Source: Myxococcales bacterium
GTDB lineage: Bacteria > Myxococcota_A > Polyangia > Fen-1088
DNA length: 64,000 nt
NCBI GenBank assembly: GCA_003142855.1
Contig: PLNW01000092.1
Location: 11,826 to 75,825, forward strand
Direction: 5' to 3'
Position 1 is the first letter of the stretch; each line of letters begins with the position of its first letter. Below are positions 3,850 through 36,245 of this stretch, piece by piece. Under the pieces are notes generated by a model. That model searched no databases, was not told the origin of the DNA, and was given only the letters and a program-made list of their open reading frames with translations. Made by a program: the position numbers and the translations under genes.

Positions 3850-4368
3850 CTAGCGACGGCCGCGGCTGCGTATGGTCTGGGCCAGACTGCGGAAACGCTT
3901 GGCTTCGGCCGGCACGGCGGCCTCGCCCCGCTCGACCGCCTGCAACGCCTCATCAGGACGCCCGGCCTCCAGCAGCGCCACGCCTAGATCCCAGTACGAG
4001 TCCGCCCATTGTGGCGCCAGTGCGATGGCGCGTTCTAGGCTTTGCACGCCTTCGTCCAGGCGGCCCAGGCGCGCGAGCGCCAGACCCAGCCCCTTGCAGG
4101 CGTAGGCGTGGTCGGGCTTGAGAGCGAGGGCTCGACGGCAATGCGCCTCAGTGGTGAGGTAGTCGCCCAGGAAGAAGCAAACGAAACCACCCAGGTCGAG
4201 CAGTGTCAGATTCTCGGGCGCCAGGGCGAGACCCTGATTGATCTTTTCCCGCGCGTCGCCCAGCGCGTGCTCCTCGATGGCGGTGCGGGCCTGCTGGATG
4301 ATGGTGTCGACCTCGGCCGTGGGCGGGGCGGCCTCGGCAGAGGCGCCCGCGGACTCGCCGCTGGTCAT
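3850..4368 (-). CDS. TPR-repeat protein, translationally coupled to rSAM/SPASM enzyme 1
   Basis: 172-aa ORF with TPR-like units (...AHCRRALALKPDHAYACKGLGLALARLGRLDEGVQSLERAIALAPQWADSYWDLGVALLEAGRPDEAL...). An ATGA start/stop overlap with the upstream gene lies at 4365-4368. Confidence 0.7.
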   Translation of the reverse strand: MTSGESAGASAEAAPPTAEVDTIIQQARTAIEEHALGDAREKINQGLALAPENLTLLDLGGFVCFFLGDYLTTEAHCRRALALKPDHAYACKGLGLALARLGRLDEGVQSLERAIALAPQWADSYWDLGVALLEAGRPDEALQAVERGEAAVPAEAKRFRSLAQTIRSRGRR

Positions 4369-5531
4369 GGTTTGCCCCCGGCGGCCGAGGCGGCCCCAGC
4401 CGCACGGCCGTCAAAGTAGCGCACCTCATCTTCGGTGGGCGCCTCGGCCAGCAGTTCAAAGCGCCGGTGTTTGACCACCTGGTGGTAGAAACAGTTTTCG
4501 TTCCCGATTCCGCCCTGAGCGTAGGTGGCCCAACTGCAACCGCCGCGGCACACGTCGCGATAGCGACAGACACGGCAGAACCCGCCCAGCTGATCCTCTT
4601 TGAAAAGCCGGTTGTACGCGAATGCATCCGCGCGGTTCCAGATGTCGCGCAGGCTCTGCCTGCGCACGTTGCCCTCGATGAAACGGGCCTCGCCGAGCAT
4701 CGACGAGGGCAGCGAGAGACACCCCTTCACGTCTCCGCCGCTCTCGATCCCGATCACCTGGCAGCCAGCTCGACAGCCCAGCCAGAAGGGCAAGGCCGTG
4801 TCGGCATCGCGCAGGTCGGGCTCGGGGTTGCCGAAGTAGCCGATGTCGTCGCTGGGATAGACTTTGAATTCAGGGCAGCTGATCCGGCACAACTCCGCGA
4901 TCTGGGGCACCAGCCACAACAGATCTTCGGGCGGCGAAACCATGTCTTTGTGCTCGCCCATGTTCCCGGTGGCGGTGGCGAACTGCAACTGCCAGGCGAA
5001 CACGCGGTGATCCATCAAGAATTGCCGCAACGACTTGAGCTGGCCCTGATTGATTCGGTTGATGGTGGTGTTCACCGCCACGGGCAAGCCAGCCGCCACG
5101 CTGAGATCGATGGCGCGTACCACCTTCACGAAGGAGCCGGGAGCCCGAAATTCGTCATGCTCTTTTTCGAAGCCGTCGATGCTGAAGGCCGCGCCACACA
5201 GCCCGGCCTTCTGCGCCTGATCGATATGTTTGGTCGACCAGGTGAGACCGTTGGAAATTAGGTTGACCCGCGCGCCCAGCTCGACCAGTCGCCGACCCAC
5301 CTCGTGCCAGCCCGGGTACATCGTGGGCTCGCCGCCGCTCAGGGTTATGCGCCGGCACCCAAGCTCCACCAGCTCGCCGGCCACGCGCATGCACTCGTCG
5401 AGCGACAGCTCGTCCGGCCGCTTGCTGCCGGCGATGGAGCCGCAGTGCTTGCACCGCAGGTTGCACGCCAGGGTCAATTCCCACACGCAAGCGCGCGGGA
5501 AGAACCCGACTCGCTGCAGGATTTCAATCAC
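4365..5531 (-). CDS. Radical SAM / SPASM-domain enzyme (cassette 1)
   Basis: 388 aa with a GTG start. It has the CxxxCxxC cluster ELTLACNLRCKHCGS and GGEP (LSGGEPTMYP). The C-terminal auxiliary-cluster Cys pattern is GCRAGCQVIGIESGGDVKGC...GGFCRVCRYRDVCRGGC, i.e. CX2CX5CX3C as in SPASM domains. It starts 17 nt downstream of the repeat-lipoprotein gene. Confidence 0.9.
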   Translation of the reverse strand: MIEILQRVGFFPRACVWELTLACNLRCKHCGSIAGSKRPDELSLDECMRVAGELVELGCRRITLSGGEPTMYPGWHEVGRRLVELGARVNLISNGLTWSTKHIDQAQKAGLCGAAFSIDGFEKEHDEFRAPGSFVKVVRAIDLSVAAGLPVAVNTTINRINQGQLKSLRQFLMDHRVFAWQLQFATATGNMGEHKDMVSPPEDLLWLVPQIAELCRISCPEFKVYPSDDIGYFGNPEPDLRDADTALPFWLGCRAGCQVIGIESGGDVKGCLSLPSSMLGEARFIEGNVRRQSLRDIWNRADAFAYNRLFKEDQLGGFCRVCRYRDVCRGGCSWATYAQGGIGNENCFYHQVVKHRRFELLAEAPTEDEVRYFDGRAAGAASAAGGKP

Positions 5532-5548
5532 GAGGGTGTTCTACCTGA

Positions 5549-6412
5549 CTAGTTCTTAGTCGGCATGGGCGCCATGTAGAGCGGCATCGGCCCCAGGCCG
5601 GCGTCCTGCTTCGGCTGCGGCGCTGAGTACCTCATAGGAAGCCCCGCGTCCGGCATCGTCGCCATGTAGAGAGCCACTGCGCCGCCGAGGTCTTTCTGCC
5701 CGGCGTCCGGCATCACCGCCATGTACTTCGTGGTAAGCCCGGCATCGGGGCCTGGGCTTCCCGCATCCGGCGAGATCGCCATGTACAGAGGATAAATCCC
5801 CGTCATTCCGCCCGCCCCTGTGGCTCCGCCCCCGCCCGACATGCCCGCCATGCCCATGTAGGCGGTAATCCCGCCGCCCCCAACAGTGCCAGGCACCGTT
5901 GCTCCCCCCTTCCCGGTCACTCCGCCTGTTCCCGTCGCTCCCCCCGCGAGCGTCATGCCCGCCATGCCCATATAGACGGTAATCCCGCCCCCTCCAACAG
6001 AGCCAGGCACCGTTGTTCCCCCCTTCCCGGTCACTCCGCCAGTCCCCGTCGCTCCCCCCGCGAACGTCATGCCCGCCATGCCCATGTATAGAGGAACCGC
6101 TGTCATTCCGCCTGCCCCTGTCGCTCCGCCTGGCCCCGTGGCTCCGCCTGCCCCTGTGGTTCCGCCCGCACCGGTCTCTCCGCCGGAGCCCGTCATGCCC
6201 GCCATGGCCATGTACACGGCAATCGCGCCGCCCCCAGCAGAGCCGGCCTGGGCGGATGAAGTATCCGCAGAGCCATCCTGACTGGCGTTCAGCGAGGTAT
6301 CGCCGCAGCCCACCAGCGCGAGCCCGATCCCCATCGAGGCAGGCACCACCACATAACGAACCGTATCCCTGAGGAAAATATGAATGCGCTCTCGGATGTC
6401 TTTCTCTCTCAT
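5549..6412 (-). CDS. Gly/Met-rich repeat lipoprotein with 8 Tyr-Met motifs; putative rSAM substrate (cassette 1)
   Basis: 287 aa. An AAGGAG SD lies 7 nt upstream of ATG 6412. The N-terminus is MREKDIRERIHIFLRDTVRYVVVPASMGIGLALVGC, with lipobox L-V-G-C. The body carries VYMAMAGM, LYMGMAGM, VYMGMAGM, AYMGMAGM, LYMAISPD, KYMAVMPD, LYMATMPD and LYMAPMP. There is no Cys after the lipobox. Confidence 0.75.
   Translation of the reverse strand: MREKDIRERIHIFLRDTVRYVVVPASMGIGLALVGCGDTSLNASQDGSADTSSAQAGSAGGGAIAVYMAMAGMTGSGGETGAGGTTGAGGATGPGGATGAGGMTAVPLYMGMAGMTFAGGATGTGGVTGKGGTTVPGSVGGGGITVYMGMAGMTLAGGATGTGGVTGKGGATVPGTVGGGGITAYMGMAGMSGGGGATGAGGMTGIYPLYMAISPDAGSPGPDAGLTTKYMAVMPDAGQKDLGGAVALYMATMPDAGLPMRYSAPQPKQDAGLGPMPLYMAPMPTKN
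5840..6090. repeat. 114-bp in-frame tandem repeat (about 2.2 units) inside the cassette-1 lipoprotein gene
   Basis: CATGCCCGCCATGCCCATRTA recurs at 5840, 5954 and 6068, a period of 114 nt (38 aa: YMGMAGMT[LF]AGGATGTGGVTGKGG[AT]TVPG[ST]VGGGGIT). A diverged copy lies at 6194. Confidence 0.8.
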
Positions 6413-6958
6413 GATCGGCTCCTTGCGCTACCGAGTGACTACTTGCGACGTTCCGCTCTCCCGAGAACAGCAAGTGTCATGCCACGGACTTTCAGCCTGC
6501 ACGGGACAGGCAAGTCCTCATAATAGCACGTGCGCCGAGGCCTTCCCCGGTGCTTTCTATGAAGCTCGTGGCAGCGTCGTCTCAGATTTCTGAGGCGATG
6601 CCCGGATGTGAATCACCCGCCAACGCGATCCGTCGCGCTCCGGTCTATGGCTACCTAGCCGCCGGAGCCGCCGCTGGGTACTCCCCGGCCAGCATCCCGT
6701 AGATGCGCGAGCTGCGGAAATGGTTGCGCAGCCACACGTATCACGGATGAGAAGCCTCTGGGTCCGGATCGGATCGATGCGCGGCATGTCTTCTCCAGTT
6801 GGCGGTGCGAAAGGCATTCGATCCCCGACCGCGTCGGGGTGTCAAACAACGCCGTCCCGCGCCCAGTGAGCCAGAAGTGAACGCCCCTGCTACTGGAAGG
6901 GTTGAGCGGCGCGAGGGCGCAGCGTGAACCGGCGAGCTTTGACCTCGGAGGAGTCACC

Positions 6959-8572
6959 ATGAAACGATACTTCGCAGCACAACGGTTTCGCACGGGGTTG
7001 CAGAACAAGCTGGGCCTGAGCGGGCTCGCTTCGCTTCTGTTGGTCGCGGTCCTGGCTGGGTGCTCTTCCTCGAAGGCGACGGGCGCTTCAGGCGGCAGCG
7101 GGGCCGGTACAAGCGGCACCACCGGGGCCAGCAGCAGTGGGGGACAGACCACCATCGGCGGTGTCACGAGTATTGCGAGCGCTGCGGGAGGATCGAGCGG
7201 CCAGGGTGGAACGACTGCCGCGATGGGAGGCACCACGGCTGTTGGGGGCACCACAGTCGGTGGGTCGACTACGGCAAGTGGCGGCACGAACGGCGGCGGT
7301 GCAACTGGTGGCGGCGCAACGGCCGTCAACAGCGCCACGGCGGGTAGCAGCGCAACGGCCGGCAGCAGCGCAACTGCCGGCAGCAGCGCGACCGCCGGCA
7401 GTGGCGCAATGGAAAGTGGCGGCACTGCGAGTGGCGGGCGCACGACGACCAGGAGCGGCGGGCTTGTGGCCGGTGGCACTACGTCCGGCGGAGGGACCAC
7501 GAGCTCAGGTGGTACGTCCAGCAACGGTGGAACGGCAGGCACAAGCCGCCCCGACGCTGGCGCAGACGCGGCTGCGGGTGTCGCTTCGCCCGATGCGCGC
7601 GGTGGCGGGGGCGCCGGAGCCGGAGGAACGGCCGGAACAGGGGGAACCGTGGCCGGCGGCACAGGCGTAGCCAGTTTCCACTGCGTGAACTGGGCCGACA
7701 ACCGGGACAACTTCGTCGACGGACATCTCCTCATGTCCGGGATCACTTCAGACACGGACACCTATGACGGCGTCACGACCAAGGCCAACATCGTCGTGGG
7801 CGCCTTCGTCGATCTGTTGCAGGCCAATTCCTTCCGCATGCCCATCAACGAGCCGACCGCTCTCGACCCCTGGTGGAATTCGTACAAGGCCGCCATCGAC
7901 GTCGGCATCGCCAAGGGAATGAAAGTGATCATTGGCTTCTGGGCGAAGGACAAGAACATTGGCAAGCCAGTCGACAACACCCGCTGGTACGCCATGTGGA
8001 AGGTCGTGATTGATGCCTACGTGAGCAATCCGCTCGTGTTCTACGATATCCACAACGAGCCGCACGGATTCACGCCCGCGCAGTGGATCACTCAGGTCAA
8101 TGGCTGGCTGGCGCAGTTCCCCAACGTGCCCAGGCAACAGATCATCGTGGCAGGCAGCGGCTGGGACGACAACGTCGCAAATGTGGCCAGTTCCTGGCCC
8201 GATCTGATGATGGAGATTCACAACTACGCGAACAACGGCCCGACGACCCAGGCAGGGTGGAAATCCAACCTGCTCAACCGCCTGGGCAACGCTGTCAGCC
8301 GCACCATTGTCGGCGAGTGGGCGGGCCAGTTGAACGAGGACTTCACCACCGGGATCGATGGCAACGCAGACAAGTCCTTTATCGTCGGCACGGCCAACAC
8401 AATCTATGACAACAAGATGGGAAGCTGCTGGTGGGCAGGCGCGTTCGCCCCGAGTGGAGGTACTTCGGGCTCCAGCCTGCTGGTTCAGAAGGGGACCGGA
8501 GACACCATGACCTTCACCGCCCAGGGTCCAGCCGCCCTCACCTACATTCAGCATTCGTGGGGCCTCAATTGA
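6959..8572 (+). CDS. Lipoprotein glycoside hydrolase family 5 (cellulase-like) with a long G/S/T/A-rich linker
   Basis: ATG 6959 is preceded by GGAGGA. The signal and lipobox read LLLVAVLAGCSSS, followed by a low-complexity linker of about 230 aa. The catalytic domain has YDIHNEPHG (acid/base NEP) and IVGEWAG (nucleophile). Confidence 0.8.
   Translation: MKRYFAAQRFRTGLQNKLGLSGLASLLLVAVLAGCSSSKATGASGGSGAGTSGTTGASSSGGQTTIGGVTSIASAAGGSSGQGGTTAAMGGTTAVGGTTVGGSTTASGGTNGGGATGGGATAVNSATAGSSATAGSSATAGSSATAGSGAMESGGTASGGRTTTRSGGLVAGGTTSGGGTTSSGGTSSNGGTAGTSRPDAGADAAAGVASPDARGGGGAGAGGTAGTGGTVAGGTGVASFHCVNWADNRDNFVDGHLLMSGITSDTDTYDGVTTKANIVVGAFVDLLQANSFRMPINEPTALDPWWNSYKAAIDVGIAKGMKVIIGFWAKDKNIGKPVDNTRWYAMWKVVIDAYVSNPLVFYDIHNEPHGFTPAQWITQVNGWLAQFPNVPRQQIIVAGSGWDDNVANVASSWPDLMMEIHNYANNGPTTQAGWKSNLLNRLGNAVSRTIVGEWAGQLNEDFTTGIDGNADKSFIVGTANTIYDNKMGSCWWAGAFAPSGGTSGSSLLVQKGTGDTMTFTAQGPAALTYIQHSWGLN
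7328..7399. repeat. 18-bp x4 in-frame tandem repeat encoding (S/N)SATAG in the GH5 linker
   Basis: aacagcgccacggcgggt / agcagcgcaacggccggc / agcagcgcaactgccggc / agcagcgcgaccgccggc. Confidence 0.8.
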
Positions 8573-8647
8573 GCTGACAGCCATTCGCGTCGGCTGTGAA
8601 AGGGCAGCCCCTCGCGCTGAACAAGAGTACAATGTTGTTCCTGGGCC

Positions 8648-9406
8648 ATGAAGGAACACGAGATCCGGCAGCGCATCGAGGGCTTCCTCAAGCGAACTGC
8701 GCGCGAGTTAGTGGTGCCGGCATCGATGGGTCTGGGCCTGGCGCTGGTCGGGTGCGACCATACTGGGATCAAGGTCGCGCGGGACGCAGCGGCTGAAACG
8801 GCCCAGTCCGTCGCGCCCGACGCGGCAGACGCGATGCTGACGAGGGATAGCGCTGCCAATGTCCCGGACGTGGCCAACCCGCGGGACTTCGGCATCAACG
8901 ATGACAGGCCCGCCCTCGATGCGTTCAAAGCAGACCTGCCTAGGCTGATCATTCCGTACGGGGTCCGCATAGAGCCGGACGCGAGCGTGGACGCGGCTGC
9001 CCCGAACGCGGATGCCCCGGACGCGGATGCAGGCGCCGCGGACGCGGAGGTTCGCGCCGTGGACTCTGGTCGCGACGCAGGCAAAGCTGACCTGCCTGCG
9101 ATCTTGCCGCCCTACATGCCGCCCTACATGCCTGCGCCCCTGCCCGATGCTGCGCAGGATCTTTCGGCAGTCATTGTCCCGTACATGGTGCCACCGCCCT
9201 ACATGGCGCCGGTCTTCGGCCCGCCTCCGCTGCCCCCGGATCCACCGCCACAGGCGCCGGAGCCGCCACCACCGCCGCCGCCACCACCGCCCTACCTGGC
9301 GCCGGTCTTCGATGCTGGCCAGGACTTGCCACGACCCATTCCCGGATACGTCGTCCCCCCACTGGCCCCATCACCGACGGTTCCGCCAGCCAAGGCACCC
9401 AAGTAG
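8648..9406 (+). CDS. Pro/Asp/Ala-rich repeat lipoprotein with P-Y-M motifs; putative rSAM substrate (cassette 2)
   Basis: 252 aa. The N-terminus MKEHEIRQRIEGFLKRTARELVVPASMGLGLALVGC is homologous to cassette 1 (24 of 37 identical by eye). The C-terminal part has PPYMPPYMPAP, VPYMVPPPYMAPV, PPYLAPV, PGYVVPP and a run of 10 Pro. There is no Cys after the lipobox. Confidence 0.75.
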   Translation: MKEHEIRQRIEGFLKRTARELVVPASMGLGLALVGCDHTGIKVARDAAAETAQSVAPDAADAMLTRDSAANVPDVANPRDFGINDDRPALDAFKADLPRLIIPYGVRIEPDASVDAAAPNADAPDADAGAADAEVRAVDSGRDAGKADLPAILPPYMPPYMPAPLPDAAQDLSAVIVPYMVPPPYMAPVFGPPPLPPDPPPQAPEPPPPPPPPPPYLAPVFDAGQDLPRPIPGYVVPPLAPSPTVPPAKAPK

Positions 9407-9439
9407 GCCGCAAGCCGTGGCAACGGCCAGGAGCCATCG

Positions 9440-10573
9440 GTGCTGGAAGTTCTGAGGCGGGCCGGCATCGCCCCGCGCGCCTGCGCGTGGGAGCTGACCT
9501 TGGGGTGCAACCTGCGCTGCCGACACTGTGGCTCGGCGGCAGGTCCGCGCCGCTCCGACGAGCTGACCCTGGAAGAATGCCTGCGCGTGGCCGACGAGCT
9601 GGGCGCCCTGGGATGCCAGCGCGCCACGCTCACCGGGGGCGAGCCCACGCTCTACCCGGACTGGGACAAGGTGGGCCGGCGCCTGGCCCAGCACATTGCC
9701 GAGGTCAGCTTGATCTCCAACGGTTGGGCATGGACCGCCCGCCATGCCCAGCAGGCCGCGCAGGCCGGTTTGCGTGGTGTCGCTTTCAGCCTCGACGGGC
9801 TGGAAAAGGAGCATGACTGCTTCCGCGCCGAGGGTTCGTTCCGGCGCGTGGTCGAGGCGGTGAAGCACACCCTGGCCGCCGGCCTGCCGGTGGGCATCAA
9901 CACGACGATTCACCGCCTCAACACCCGCCAGCTTCCCCAGTTGCGCCAATTTCTCATCGACATCGGCGTGCGCACCTGGCAATTGCAGTTCGCCATCGCC
10001 ACGGGCTACATGGCCGAAAATCGCGACCTGGTGGCGCCGCCCGAGGAGCGGCTGTGGCTGATTCCGCAGATCGCGGAAATGTGCCGTGCCAGCGACAACC
10101 GCATCAAAGTCTACGCCAGCGACCACATCGGCTACTTCGGCAAGCCCGAGCGCGACCTGCGCACCGGTGACACCTCCATGCCGTTCTGGCTGGGCTGCCG
10201 CGCCGGCTGCCATGTCATCGGCATCGAGAGCAACGGCAACGTGAAGGGCTGCCTGTCGCTGCCTTCGCAGGTGCAGGGCGAGAGCCGCTTCGTCGAGGGC
10301 AACCTGCGCCAGAGCAATCTGCGCGAGATCTGGAACCGCAAGGGCGCCTTCGCCTACAACCGCGAATTCCGTATCGAGCAACTGGGAGGCTTCTGCGCCG
10401 TATGCCGCTTCCGCGACATCTGTCGGGGCGGCTGCACCTGGACCATGTACGCCGAATCACCCACGCTGGCCGCGGGTAATCCGCACTGTTTCTACCACCA
10501 GGCCGTCAAGCACGGCCGCAGCGACCTGCTCGACGAAGAGCCCACGGCAGAGGAAAAGGCCTTCTTCGGCTAG
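9440..10573 (+). CDS. Radical SAM / SPASM-domain enzyme (cassette 2), paralog of 4365..5531
   Basis: 377 aa. GTG 9440 has an AGGAG SD 6 nt upstream. Motifs are ELTLGCNLRCRHCGS, LTGGEPTLYP and GCRAGCHVIGIESNGNVKGC...GGFCAVCRFRDICRGGC. It is roughly 55-65% identical to the cassette-1 enzyme by eye across the full length. Confidence 0.9.
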   Translation: MLEVLRRAGIAPRACAWELTLGCNLRCRHCGSAAGPRRSDELTLEECLRVADELGALGCQRATLTGGEPTLYPDWDKVGRRLAQHIAEVSLISNGWAWTARHAQQAAQAGLRGVAFSLDGLEKEHDCFRAEGSFRRVVEAVKHTLAAGLPVGINTTIHRLNTRQLPQLRQFLIDIGVRTWQLQFAIATGYMAENRDLVAPPEERLWLIPQIAEMCRASDNRIKVYASDHIGYFGKPERDLRTGDTSMPFWLGCRAGCHVIGIESNGNVKGCLSLPSQVQGESRFVEGNLRQSNLREIWNRKGAFAYNREFRIEQLGGFCAVCRFRDICRGGCTWTMYAESPTLAAGNPHCFYHQAVKHGRSDLLDEEPTAEEKAFFG

Positions 10574-34781: not shown

Positions 34782-36245
34782 ATGAATGCAATGCAAACTG
34801 GACGGATTGAGATAGCGAAACTTCGCTTTGGCATCATGGCCGCTTTCGGGCTGTGGTACGCGGCGGCCGTGGGTGTTGGCTGCGGCTCAAACAACAACGG
34901 CCAGGCTCCGTCGGGTGGCACGATCCAGTCCACCACGGGTGGCGGCGCTGGCAACGCCGCGGCTGGCAGCGCAGGCAACGGCGCGGCCGGAAGCGCGGGC
35001 AACGGCGCGGCCGGAAGCGCGGGCAACGGTGCGGGTGGTGCCAGCACGTCTCCCACAACGGGCGGCTCCACAGAAAGCGGGACGGGTGGGGGCGCCGCGG
35101 GCGCCGCGGGCGCCGCAGGCAGTTCGGCAACTGGCGGGGCCAGCGCAACTGGTGGGGCCAGTGCAACTGGTGGCGTAGCTACTGGCGGGGTCAGCGCAAC
35201 AGGCGGCTCGGCTACCGGCGGGGCCAGTGTGGCCGGCGGTTCAGCCACCGGCGGCGCCAGCGCGAAAGGCGGTTCGGTCACTGGCGGCGCCAGCGTGGCC
35301 GGCGGCTCGGCTACTGGCGGCGCAACCAAGACAGGCGGGACCGTCAGTGGCGGAGCCGGCGCATCTAGTTCTGCAACTGGAGGGTCAGCCGCGGGGGGCA
35401 GCACGGGCGGAAGCCAAGGCGGGACCAGCAGCACGAGCGCAAGCAGCGGCGGATCCACGAGCACAGGGGCCTGCGCGCCTCGCGTGCTATCGCTGAGTTC
35501 CAACGCCACTGGCTCGGCCGCCGACACGGCCTACTCCCATGTCGAAGTGGACATGAAGACCGACTTGCCCATTGGAAACGCGGCGCGCACCGTCGAGTTC
35601 TGGGCCTACATCAAGACCACGGACTGGGTCGGCGAGATGAATGAGGTCTACTACATTGGCCCAGCAGCGAACGCCACATCAGCCTCGACATTCGGTCTCG
35701 ACTTCGGCACCAACGACGTAACAGGGAGCAAGACCAATCACGCGACGCTGAACCCATTTACCAATGGACTCAACGACGACACTGGCGCCGACCTCGGAAT
35801 CGACTCGTCGACCAACCAGTGGGTGCATGTCGCGATGACCTGGGATCAGAAGGCGCTGCTAACCTACGTCAACGGGCTCCCCAAGATCACGGACAACGCA
35901 ACGACTGCTATCCCGGTACTCAAGACCACCCAGTCGCTCCTGTACATTGGGTGCAACCCGACCAACAGTAACTGCTTCAATGGCGACTTTGCCGAGTTCC
36001 GCGTGTGGAACGTGGCCCGCAGCGCCGCGGACATCCTGGCCAACTACAAGAAGCCGATGGTGGGCAACGAAGCCGGCTTGGTCGGTTACTGGAAGTTCGA
36101 TGATGCCGCTAACGCAACCAGCGCGGCGGACTCCGTGACCACGACCGGGCACACCGCCCACCCCGGCACACTGAAAGCCACCACGACCGCACAGAACCCG
36201 ACCTTCGCCACGCCCAACCCGGCCGTGCCGATTACCTGTCCTTGA
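34782..36245 (+). CDS. Lipoprotein with a long Gly-rich repeat linker and a LamG (concanavalin-A-like lectin) domain
   Basis: 487 aa with lipobox AAVGVGCGS. The linker holds (GGSATGGAS)-type repeats. The LamG signature reads ..WVHVAMTWDQKALLTYVNG...GDFAEFRVWNVARSAADI. Confidence 0.75.
   Translation: MNAMQTGRIEIAKLRFGIMAAFGLWYAAAVGVGCGSNNNGQAPSGGTIQSTTGGGAGNAAAGSAGNGAAGSAGNGAAGSAGNGAGGASTSPTTGGSTESGTGGGAAGAAGAAGSSATGGASATGGASATGGVATGGVSATGGSATGGASVAGGSATGGASAKGGSVTGGASVAGGSATGGATKTGGTVSGGAGASSSATGGSAAGGSTGGSQGGTSSTSASSGGSTSTGACAPRVLSLSSNATGSAADTAYSHVEVDMKTDLPIGNAARTVEFWAYIKTTDWVGEMNEVYYIGPAANATSASTFGLDFGTNDVTGSKTNHATLNPFTNGLNDDTGADLGIDSSTNQWVHVAMTWDQKALLTYVNGLPKITDNATTAIPVLKTTQSLLYIGCNPTNSNCFNGDFAEFRVWNVARSAADILANYKKPMVGNEAGLVGYWKFDDAANATSAADSVTTTGHTAHPGTLKATTTAQNPTFATPNPAVPITCP
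34974..35035. repeat. 24-bp in-frame tandem repeat (about 2.5 units) encoding GNGAAGSA
   Basis: ggcaacggcgcggccggaagcgcg occurs twice, followed by ggcaacggtgcgggtgg. Confidence 0.75.

Follow-up and report, generated by a model that had tools for sequence, protein, structure and literature searches.

How does a cytoplasmic radical S-adenosylmethionine (rSAM) enzyme engage a protein that is bound for export as a lipoprotein? The question is raised by a 64,000-nucleotide stretch of an uncultured Myxococcales bacterium (contig PLNW01000092.1, lineage Fen-1088; hereafter the window), which holds two diverged cassettes, one on the minus and one on the plus strand, each with a gene for a putative lipoprotein substrate and a gene for an rSAM/SPASM enzyme. 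A preliminary description, made from the nucleotide letters alone, had proposed that both substrates start with a recognition leader that signal peptidase II would remove. Our analysis suggests that the first 36 residues could indeed be a two-part leader made as one unit, in which residues 1-20 would form a positively charged helix staying in the cytoplasm and residues 21-36 a signal peptidase II signal with an unusually conserved hydrophobic P-A-S/T-x-G-L/I-G-L stretch, ending in the lipobox Cys. We consider this recognition role plausible, strengthened by the present work and the best explanation of the data, and give it about an even chance of being correct. The observations behind it concern the anatomy of the leader, its conservation, its co-occurrence with the enzyme, and the alternative architectures found in related enzyme clades.

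Substrate 1 is encoded by an open reading frame (ORF) of 287 aa running from 6412 to 5549 (-) and begins with MREKDIRERIHIFLRDTVRY-VVVPASMGIGLALVGC; substrate 2 (252 aa, 8648 to 9406, +) begins with MKEHEIRQRIEGFLKRTARE-LVVPASMGLGLALVGC. BLASTP aligned the two proteins at the N-terminus only (30/62 identical, E 3e-17), the remainder being unalignable. The layout is the same in both, with about 20 charged residues leading into VVPASMG[IL]GLALVG and then Cys36. In substrate 1 the charged helical extension MREKDIRERIHIFLRDTVRY (residues 1-20) lies at 6353..6412 (-), as placed by the ORF, the alignment, the codon pattern and the AlphaFold2 (AF2) helix described below, and the h-region VVVPASMGIGLALVG with the lipobox Cys36 (residues 21-36, Cys codon 6305-6307) at 6305..6352 (-), as placed by the alignment and the lipobox pattern. 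Their counterparts in substrate 2 are the extension MKEHEIRQRIEGFLKRTARE at 8648..8707 (+), defined by the ORF, BLASTP, the alignment and AF2, and the h-region LVVPASMGLGLALVG with Cys36 (codon 8753-8755) at 8708..8755 (+), again from the alignment and the lipobox pattern. The segments 6302-6412 and 8648-8758 singled out in the preliminary description are codons 1-37 of the two genes. What it had said of them, that a conserved, charged and predicted-helical segment of about 20 aa precedes a near-identical h-region and lipobox, was borne out by the ORFs, BLASTP, an alignment of 63 leaders (A1), the AF2 helix and a PROSITE-like pattern.

The same start Met is found in around 80 six-frame homologues from related genomes. 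In A1, M1, R7 and P24 are invariant, E3, F13, L14, A25, G28, G30, L31 and C36 are kept in at least 90% of the sequences, and the spacing is fixed. At codon positions 1/2/3, pairwise differences average 0.37/0.28/0.56 for codons 1-20 and 0.34/0.11/0.56 for codons 21-36, a pattern from which it follows that selection acts on the protein. The ATG at 6412 is preceded at a distance of 6 nt by a Shine-Dalgarno sequence, AAGGAG (6419..6424, -), and type-1 homologues, whose leaders resemble that of substrate 1, keep GCGCAAGGAGCCGAyC-ATG. A mis-called start or non-coding conservation was rejected on the strength of the common Met, the type-1 Shine-Dalgarno and the 0.37/0.28/0.56 codon pattern. Identity over the 36-residue leader averages 0.56 versus 0.24 for the mature part, and the leader was the more similar of the two in 1540/1540 pairs. 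The leader is conserved far beyond an ordinary signal peptide, and charged extension, h-region and lipobox behave as one unit of invariant length across the family, in keeping with the earlier idea that leader and signal peptide are a single entity. The start of the type-2 genes, the kind to which substrate 2 belongs, is organized differently: in front of every one of their leaders (8615-8647 in the window) stands GAAAAGCGGTACCATG/GTACAATG; a Shine-Dalgarno is missing, and a -10-like hexamer lies 14-15 nt before the ATG. In substrate 2 the hexamer is TACAAT (8628..8633, +), 14 nt before the ATG at 8648. The type-2 genes may possibly be transcribed as near-leaderless mRNA, with the hexamer acting as promoter.

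Is the Cys at the end of this unit a lipidation site? Both substrates match a PROSITE PS51257-like lipobox pattern ([LVI][ASTVIG][GAS]-C) and have uncharged h-regions of 15-16 aa. Of 57 family members, 47 have the Cys at position 36 and the others have it at 35-41, in every case in a lipobox context (-3 = L/V/M/A, -2 = G/V/S/A, -1 = G/A/S), and residues 1-22 carry a net charge of +1 to +6 in all 63 leaders (at least +2 in 60). Because of the 20-aa extension, position 36 lies one residue beyond the PROSITE rule that places the Cys within residues 15-35. AF2 run on A1 predicted a helix over residues 2-35, with predicted local distance difference test (pLDDT) values of 85 and 82 in residues 1-20 and of 56 and 52 in the h-region, and structure look-alikes of residues 1-40 in the ESM Atlas were generic N-terminal membrane helices only. 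One continuous helix, look-alikes of this sort and a Cys one residue outside the rule (<=35) are features that also speak for an uncleaved signal anchor, that is, a type II membrane protein with a cytoplasmic tail, one transmembrane helix and an unlipidated Cys. We judge such an anchor to be very unlikely: the Cys is kept in at least 90% of members in a canonical lipobox, even when it is shifted within 35-41, mature parts are otherwise Cys-free in nearly all members, and the genome encodes LspA (PF01252, E 3e-36). The unusual conservation of the h-region (P24, A25, G28, G30, L31) might instead be read as a sign that the functional product is the signal peptide, once released, comparable to the pheromones derived from enterococcal lipoprotein signals. 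This we regard as highly improbable, as the cassettes contain no receptor or processing genes and the linkage to rSAM and TPR genes, as well as the enzyme fusions described below, would be left unexplained.

A strongly amphipathic leader helix was unsupported, the hydrophobic moment (muH) being a modest 0.42 (z 0.8 against shuffles). A twin-arginine translocation (Tat) signal was rejected, since the conserved R7-x-R9 is not RR and no TIGR01409-type match was seen; no Pfam/NCBIfam match to ESPR (PF13018) or a Tat signal was obtained in the substrates, nor did either substrate match Nif11/NHLP or another NCBIfam/Pfam family at E <= 0.01. The leader also contains FL(K/R) 6-7 residues ahead of the h-region. 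None of the other lipoproteins in the window has a homologous extension, as first described; the n-regions of 2-8 aa ascribed to them were mostly right. For most of the window's other lipobox ORFs, an n-region of 2-10 aa is obtained from a possible start; in two of them, one at 34782/34791 and the other that of the GH5 lipoprotein at 6959, the n-region may reach 12-17 aa but is not homologous to the extension. With the ATG at 6959 as its start, the n-region of the GH5 lipoprotein would be basic, 17 aa long and without relation to the extension.

The enzyme of the first cassette (4365..5531, -; 388 aa) has Pfam Radical_SAM and SPASM domains; that of the second (9440..10573, +; 377 aa) is 64% identical to it over the full length, and neither has a signal peptide. 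Their best NCBIfam matches are TIGR03913 and TIGR04103 (233-252 bits, E 1e-69 to 1e-75), scores below the curated cut-offs of 591.75 and 725 bits, so that neither enzyme is a member of these families. Neither cassette contains a dedicated protease or exporter. The start of a gene for a TPR protein (3850..4368, -; Pfam TPR) overlaps the stop of the rSAM 1 gene. Exactly one copy of this gene was found in 21/22 genomes bearing the system and none elsewhere in the order, and in genus g11 the TPR is fused to an rSAM. With one TPR per genome regardless of the number of rSAM paralogues (1-6) and the many substrates, the protein is a candidate for a common adaptor or chaperone of the system.

Behind the leader, the mature part of substrate 1 (5549..6304, -) is made up of Gly-rich repeats that bear Tyr motifs of the form YM(A/G)xMPDAG and has no Cys, and that of substrate 2 (8756..9406, +) is rich in Asp, Ala and Pro, with PYM(P/A) motifs and a poly-Pro run. 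A logo built on 839 sites gives the Tyr-context consensus VPxYMAPMPDAG. Among 57 distinct Tyr-motif substrates, 35 adjoin an rSAM gene and 22 lie elsewhere with leader and motif retained; these 22 are probably modified in trans. The family displays the pattern of a peptide that is made on the ribosome and modified after translation (RiPP), with a conserved N-terminus, a hypervariable core, a neighboring maturase and extra precursors elsewhere in the genome. We found no description of a family of Tyr-motif lipoproteins from uncultured peat or wetland Myxococcota, and the present survey defines one. Genus g11 contains a third substrate subtype (L021, L023, L051, L054, L060 and L024) with the leader MKERDIRDHINAFLRTRLQN and Gly-rich cores in which (T/L)VYG(I/T)GG or LYAAPFGG motifs replace YMAPMPDAG; it adjoins rSAMs 66-77% identical to enzyme 1.

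In an order-level survey of 89 genomes from 19 genera (G000 being the genome of the window), the leader was present in 2/19 genera, namely in 10/10 genomes of g1 and 12/13 of g11, at 2-7 copies per genome. The close rSAM clade (at least 57% identity) was found in exactly the leader-bearing genomes, and the g11 genome G031 is without both. Among 400 genomes sampled from the phylum, the leader profile gave outside G000 only four marginal partial matches (E ~1e-3), restricted to the h-region and lipobox part. A search of 1.84 billion cluster representatives returned 253 hits, 155 of them at E <= 1e-10; among the 150 matches listed, nearly all begin at residue 1 and 119 have at least two Tyr motifs.

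The comparison with related enzymes is in our view the strongest argument that the enzyme engages the leader; a general export device would not predict what is seen there. A sister rSAM clade (39-41% identity), recovered as more than 60 clusters of 404-598 aa from Myxococcota metagenome-assembled genomes (MAGs) in NCBI, JGI, ENA and Logan (P0157-P0221; e.g. L093:3956-5584, +), is fused to its presumptive substrate in the order rSAM/SPASM, charged linker of 15-25 aa, hydrophobic segment, acidic tail. The hydrophobic segment mostly ends in a lipobox-like Cys, e.g. AAAAVVLATALGASAQAC, and the tail repeats V[DP][DE]-Y-G-[MI]-P-D. The hydrophobic segment is present in 62 of 66 long homologues of this clade; a strict lipobox-like Cys is seen in 48, and at least two Tyr follow the segment in 42. 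In these fused proteins the extension's place is taken by the enzyme itself. An origin of the cassettes by simple fission of a fused gene was rejected, since the gene order is reversed, with the substrate upstream of the enzyme in the window.

A third rSAM clade (37-40% identity), from other genera of the order, has a small lipoprotein precursor of 109-210 aa next door in 17/20 loci (L183-L202; e.g. L189:935-1417:- and L187 2667-3161). These precursors start with an N-terminal zinc ribbon, MSHLxPCxxCxRHV...CPFC, and a linker; next come an n-region, which is charged, and an h-region, with the lipobox Cys at 61-70. The mature part is Gly-rich and ends in APPYGIAPLYGAP motifs. The enzymes of this clade have in common a 32-aa tail, QGKRERLV..PFDNGRFEI..EE. 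For all three clades the best matches are TIGR04103 and TIGR03913, at scores below the cut-offs. We infer from these arrangements that Tyr-motif proteins with a lipobox are the substrates of three related enzymes; each system has a different cytoplasm-side module directly before the membrane-targeting segment. A distinct module per rSAM clade is what would be expected if the enzyme engages its substrate at the pre-signal position. One may go further and propose a design principle of Myxococcota in which the maturase is recruited or tethered by a pre-signal module, which may be a zinc ribbon, a charged helix or the enzyme, with Lgt and LspA serving as leader peptidase and exporter; this broader proposal is tentative and has, to our mind, somewhat less than an even chance of holding.

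Several results weigh against enzyme recognition as the role of the leader. No RRE/PqqD-like domain was detected in the rSAM enzymes with Pfam/NCBIfam. Substrate 2 and rSAM 2 lie in frame, and taking TAG as Q joins them into one natural read-through chain, which we modeled with AF2 on a mixed alignment as a docking proxy; leader pLDDT was 80/79/43 versus 85/82/56 for the leader alone, no gain, which is a weak negative given that the proxy has no contact read-out. A strict pairing of leader subtype with rSAM clade also failed, as G046, a MAG that is 93% complete, has type-2 leaders and no cassette-2-type rSAM was found in it. The proposal that the segment engages the enzyme is supported by co-occurrence, by the RiPP-like pattern and by the modules of related clades; its structural side came out uninformative to negative.

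The extension is moreover not confined to Tyr-motif proteins. In genus g1 it also stands by itself, as MKEQDVRQR[IM]ESF[LM]K, at the N-terminus of a minority of the Cys-rich, DUF4215-like lipoproteins; these have a different, ordinary signal peptide (MPRAAAxxxAGLVGLAC) without the PASxGLGL h-region and possess neither Tyr motifs nor an rSAM neighbor. An extension-only profile found one further copy in the genome of the window, at G000:C14:1-66 (-) (L173, MKEQDVRQRMESFMKMPRAAAL...), cut by the contig end. The preliminary description had held that its proposal would be undermined if the extension were common on unrelated lipoproteins lacking rSAM neighbors; the extension does occur on such proteins, in sister genomes and once here, and is uncommon on them. 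What is specific to the Tyr-motif proteins is thus the PASxGLGL h-region no less than the charged helix. The Cys-rich family is large, forms tandem arrays and has a CGDG..CD repeat; its loci in sister genomes include L079, L082, L050 and L081.

The surroundings of these genes weigh in the same direction. Cys-rich genes have short genes for Tyr-motif proteins (111-116 aa) and many leader-only ORFs (24-65 aa, some of them chimeras) immediately upstream of them or overlapping their start (L010, L027, L028, L030, L035, L045, L061, L067 and L069 for both kinds). These short and leader-only ORFs could be remnants, upstream ORFs or assembly frameshifts. Type-2 leaders and extension-bearing Cys-rich genes have about 30 nt of upstream DNA in common, with TACCAT/TACAAT 14-15 nt before the ATG, and whole 5' modules have therefore been copied. 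Part of the leader conservation could come from such duplication. Taken to its end, this line of thought makes the leader the shared 5' module of a variable surface-lipoprotein family, with promoter, start and signal duplicated or recombined as a block in the manner of mycoplasma Vsp/Vlp, and its conservation a matter of concerted evolution and expression control instead of enzyme docking. The common upstream DNA of the type-2 modules (GAAAAGCGGTACCATG...), Cys-rich genes included, the truncated leader-only ORFs and chimeras, and the repetitive, hypervariable mature parts all agree with it. However, leaders are 40-60% identical across two genera, with conservative replacements and predominantly third-position changes (0.37/0.28/0.56), and therefore point to purifying selection on the protein, not to recent conversion. 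In addition, the upstream DNA of type-1 and type-2 genes is unrelated even though the protein consensus is identical. As an account of the whole leader, a copied 5' module is in our opinion quite unlikely.

Another function that would need no contact with the enzyme is the timing or routing of export. Acting as ESPR or YSIRK do, the helix would then slow or redirect engagement by the signal recognition particle and Sec, giving long repetitive precursors sufficient time in the cytoplasm or sending them along a particular route. The ESPR (PF13018), YSIRK and KxYKxGKxW extensions have a role in export or localization, precede signal peptidase I signals and are not tied to a cytoplasmic modifying enzyme. 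Like them, the extension studied here is a conserved addition to the n-region of a signal peptide that is ordinary in other respects, and is carried by large, repetitive surface proteins; unlike them, it precedes a signal peptidase II signal, and there is no sequence match between it and them. A timing role would be consistent with the presence of the extension on Cys-rich lipoproteins, which are not obvious rSAM substrates, with the AF2 proxy, which gave no sign of docking, and with the literature on MNIO enzymes, which stresses that premature export of precursors bearing signal peptides has to be avoided (PMC12452194). Yet the extension is confined to genomes with the rSAM and, in 21/22, the TPR partner, a different rSAM clade comes with a different type of module (zinc ribbon, the enzyme itself), which a general export device would leave unpredicted, and there is no Pfam match to ESPR or a Tat signal. 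We consider timing or routing, whether by delay or by choice of route, unlikely as the sole purpose of the extension; it is compatible with enzyme recognition as a second function.

If the leader is a recognition leader, the following order of events would apply. The cytoplasmic rSAM/SPASM enzyme, probably aided by the single-copy TPR partner, would hold the precursor by its leader. The Tyr-centered repeats (VPxYMAPMPDAG and variants) would be modified by the rSAM ahead of export. Sec export, lipidation by Lgt and cleavage by LspA would then take off the whole leader, and the general lipoprotein pathway would thereby double as leader peptidase and exporter. In this scheme binding, the order of events, cleavage and chemistry at Tyr are inferred.

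Maturation of RiPPs and proteins by radical SAM enzymes is usually described with a dedicated leader, protease and exporter. QhpD and anSME are rSAM/SPASM enzymes that modify periplasm-bound proteins, QhpC and sulfatases, respectively. QhpC has an N-terminal leader that is needed by QhpD and is later cut by a dedicated protease, export being through an ATP-binding cassette transporter; in the case of anSME the signal peptide of the sulfatase is not needed. Both resemble the cassettes in that a cytoplasmic SPASM enzyme acts ahead of export, and QhpC also in that its leader is later removed. They differ in having Cys or Ser targets, as opposed to Tyr motifs, and products that are not lipoproteins. 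The systems defined by TIGR04103 (nif11-class maturase 3) and TIGR03913 (GDL-motif peptide maturase) likewise have a conserved leader, a variable core and several precursors; here, by contrast, there is no double-glycine site and no peptidase-containing ATP-binding cassette transporter (PCAT), and a lipoprotein signal is found instead.

Two parallels come from a different enzyme class. In DAG-RiPPs (DybA/DybH, MNIO), cytosolic modification followed by processing through Lgt, LspA and Lnt has been experimentally shown, recognition is by a minimal C-terminal motif and independent of a leader, and pathways that do depend on one are expected by the authors to be poor candidates; the term 'radical SAM' has 0 occurrences in the paper (PNAS 2026, PMC13056109). 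The likeness lies in the signal peptidase II signal with a lipobox, the cytosolic enzyme without signal peptide and the lack of a dedicated protease or exporter. The differences are the MNIO there and the rSAM/SPASM here, together with the conserved N-terminal extension, the many internal Tyr motifs and the protein length of 90-290 aa. The substrates do carry a signal of the SPII type, but with an rSAM/SPASM neighbor and internal Tyr repeats they are not DAG-RiPPs. In the bufferins (MNIO BufB/BufC), where a Sec signal peptide also replaces the classical leader, preliminary data are reported according to which the recognition sequence probably includes the signal peptide, a partner protein has been suggested to mask it until modification is complete, premature export is regarded as an open problem, and around 16% of Buf2 precursors have lipoprotein signals (PMC12452194). 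Bufferins differ in using an MNIO with DUF2063 where rSAM/SPASM and TPR proteins are found here, in having Cys targets and in that no conserved charged pre-signal extension has been described. We found no paper in the full-text literature that joins radical SAM/SPASM with a lipoprotein signal peptide or a lipobox precursor peptide, and signal peptidase is absent from a 2023 review on the proteases that cut RiPP leaders. RiPP-lipoprotein hybrids are known only for MNIO enzymes; what would be new here is the combination of a radical SAM enzyme with a dedicated pre-signal leader.

Should recognition by the leader be confirmed, this would be a radical SAM system in which recognition leader and lipoprotein signal peptide are fused into one, with the housekeeping machinery taking care of leader removal, lipidation and export. 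It would contrast with the judgment of the DAG-RiPP authors that leader-dependent pathways are unlikely on the lipoprotein route (PMC13056109), and it would bear on the question, raised for bufferins, of how a precursor bearing a signal peptide escapes premature export. The helix, the zinc ribbon and the covalent fusion offer three natural pre-signal variants for comparison. If the wider design principle were true, LspA would, in the fused clade, cut the finished lipoprotein off its own maturase at the internal lipobox.

Some further observations concern the locus and its occurrence in nature. Contigs from four peat/wetland metatranscriptome libraries are 90-97% identical over parts of both substrates and of the GH5 gene (within 5500-9500) and span the leader region (e.g. 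6215-6494); they derive from relatives and are weak evidence, establishing neither the 5' end nor transcription with certainty. Near-identical DNA is present in several peat and permafrost metagenome runs, several of which are possibly the source sample. Between the two cassettes sits the gene of the GH5 (cellulase family) lipoprotein (6959-8572, +), which has a Gly/Ser/Thr-rich linker. The two cassettes are also found near each other and divergent, on one contig, in G047 and G051.

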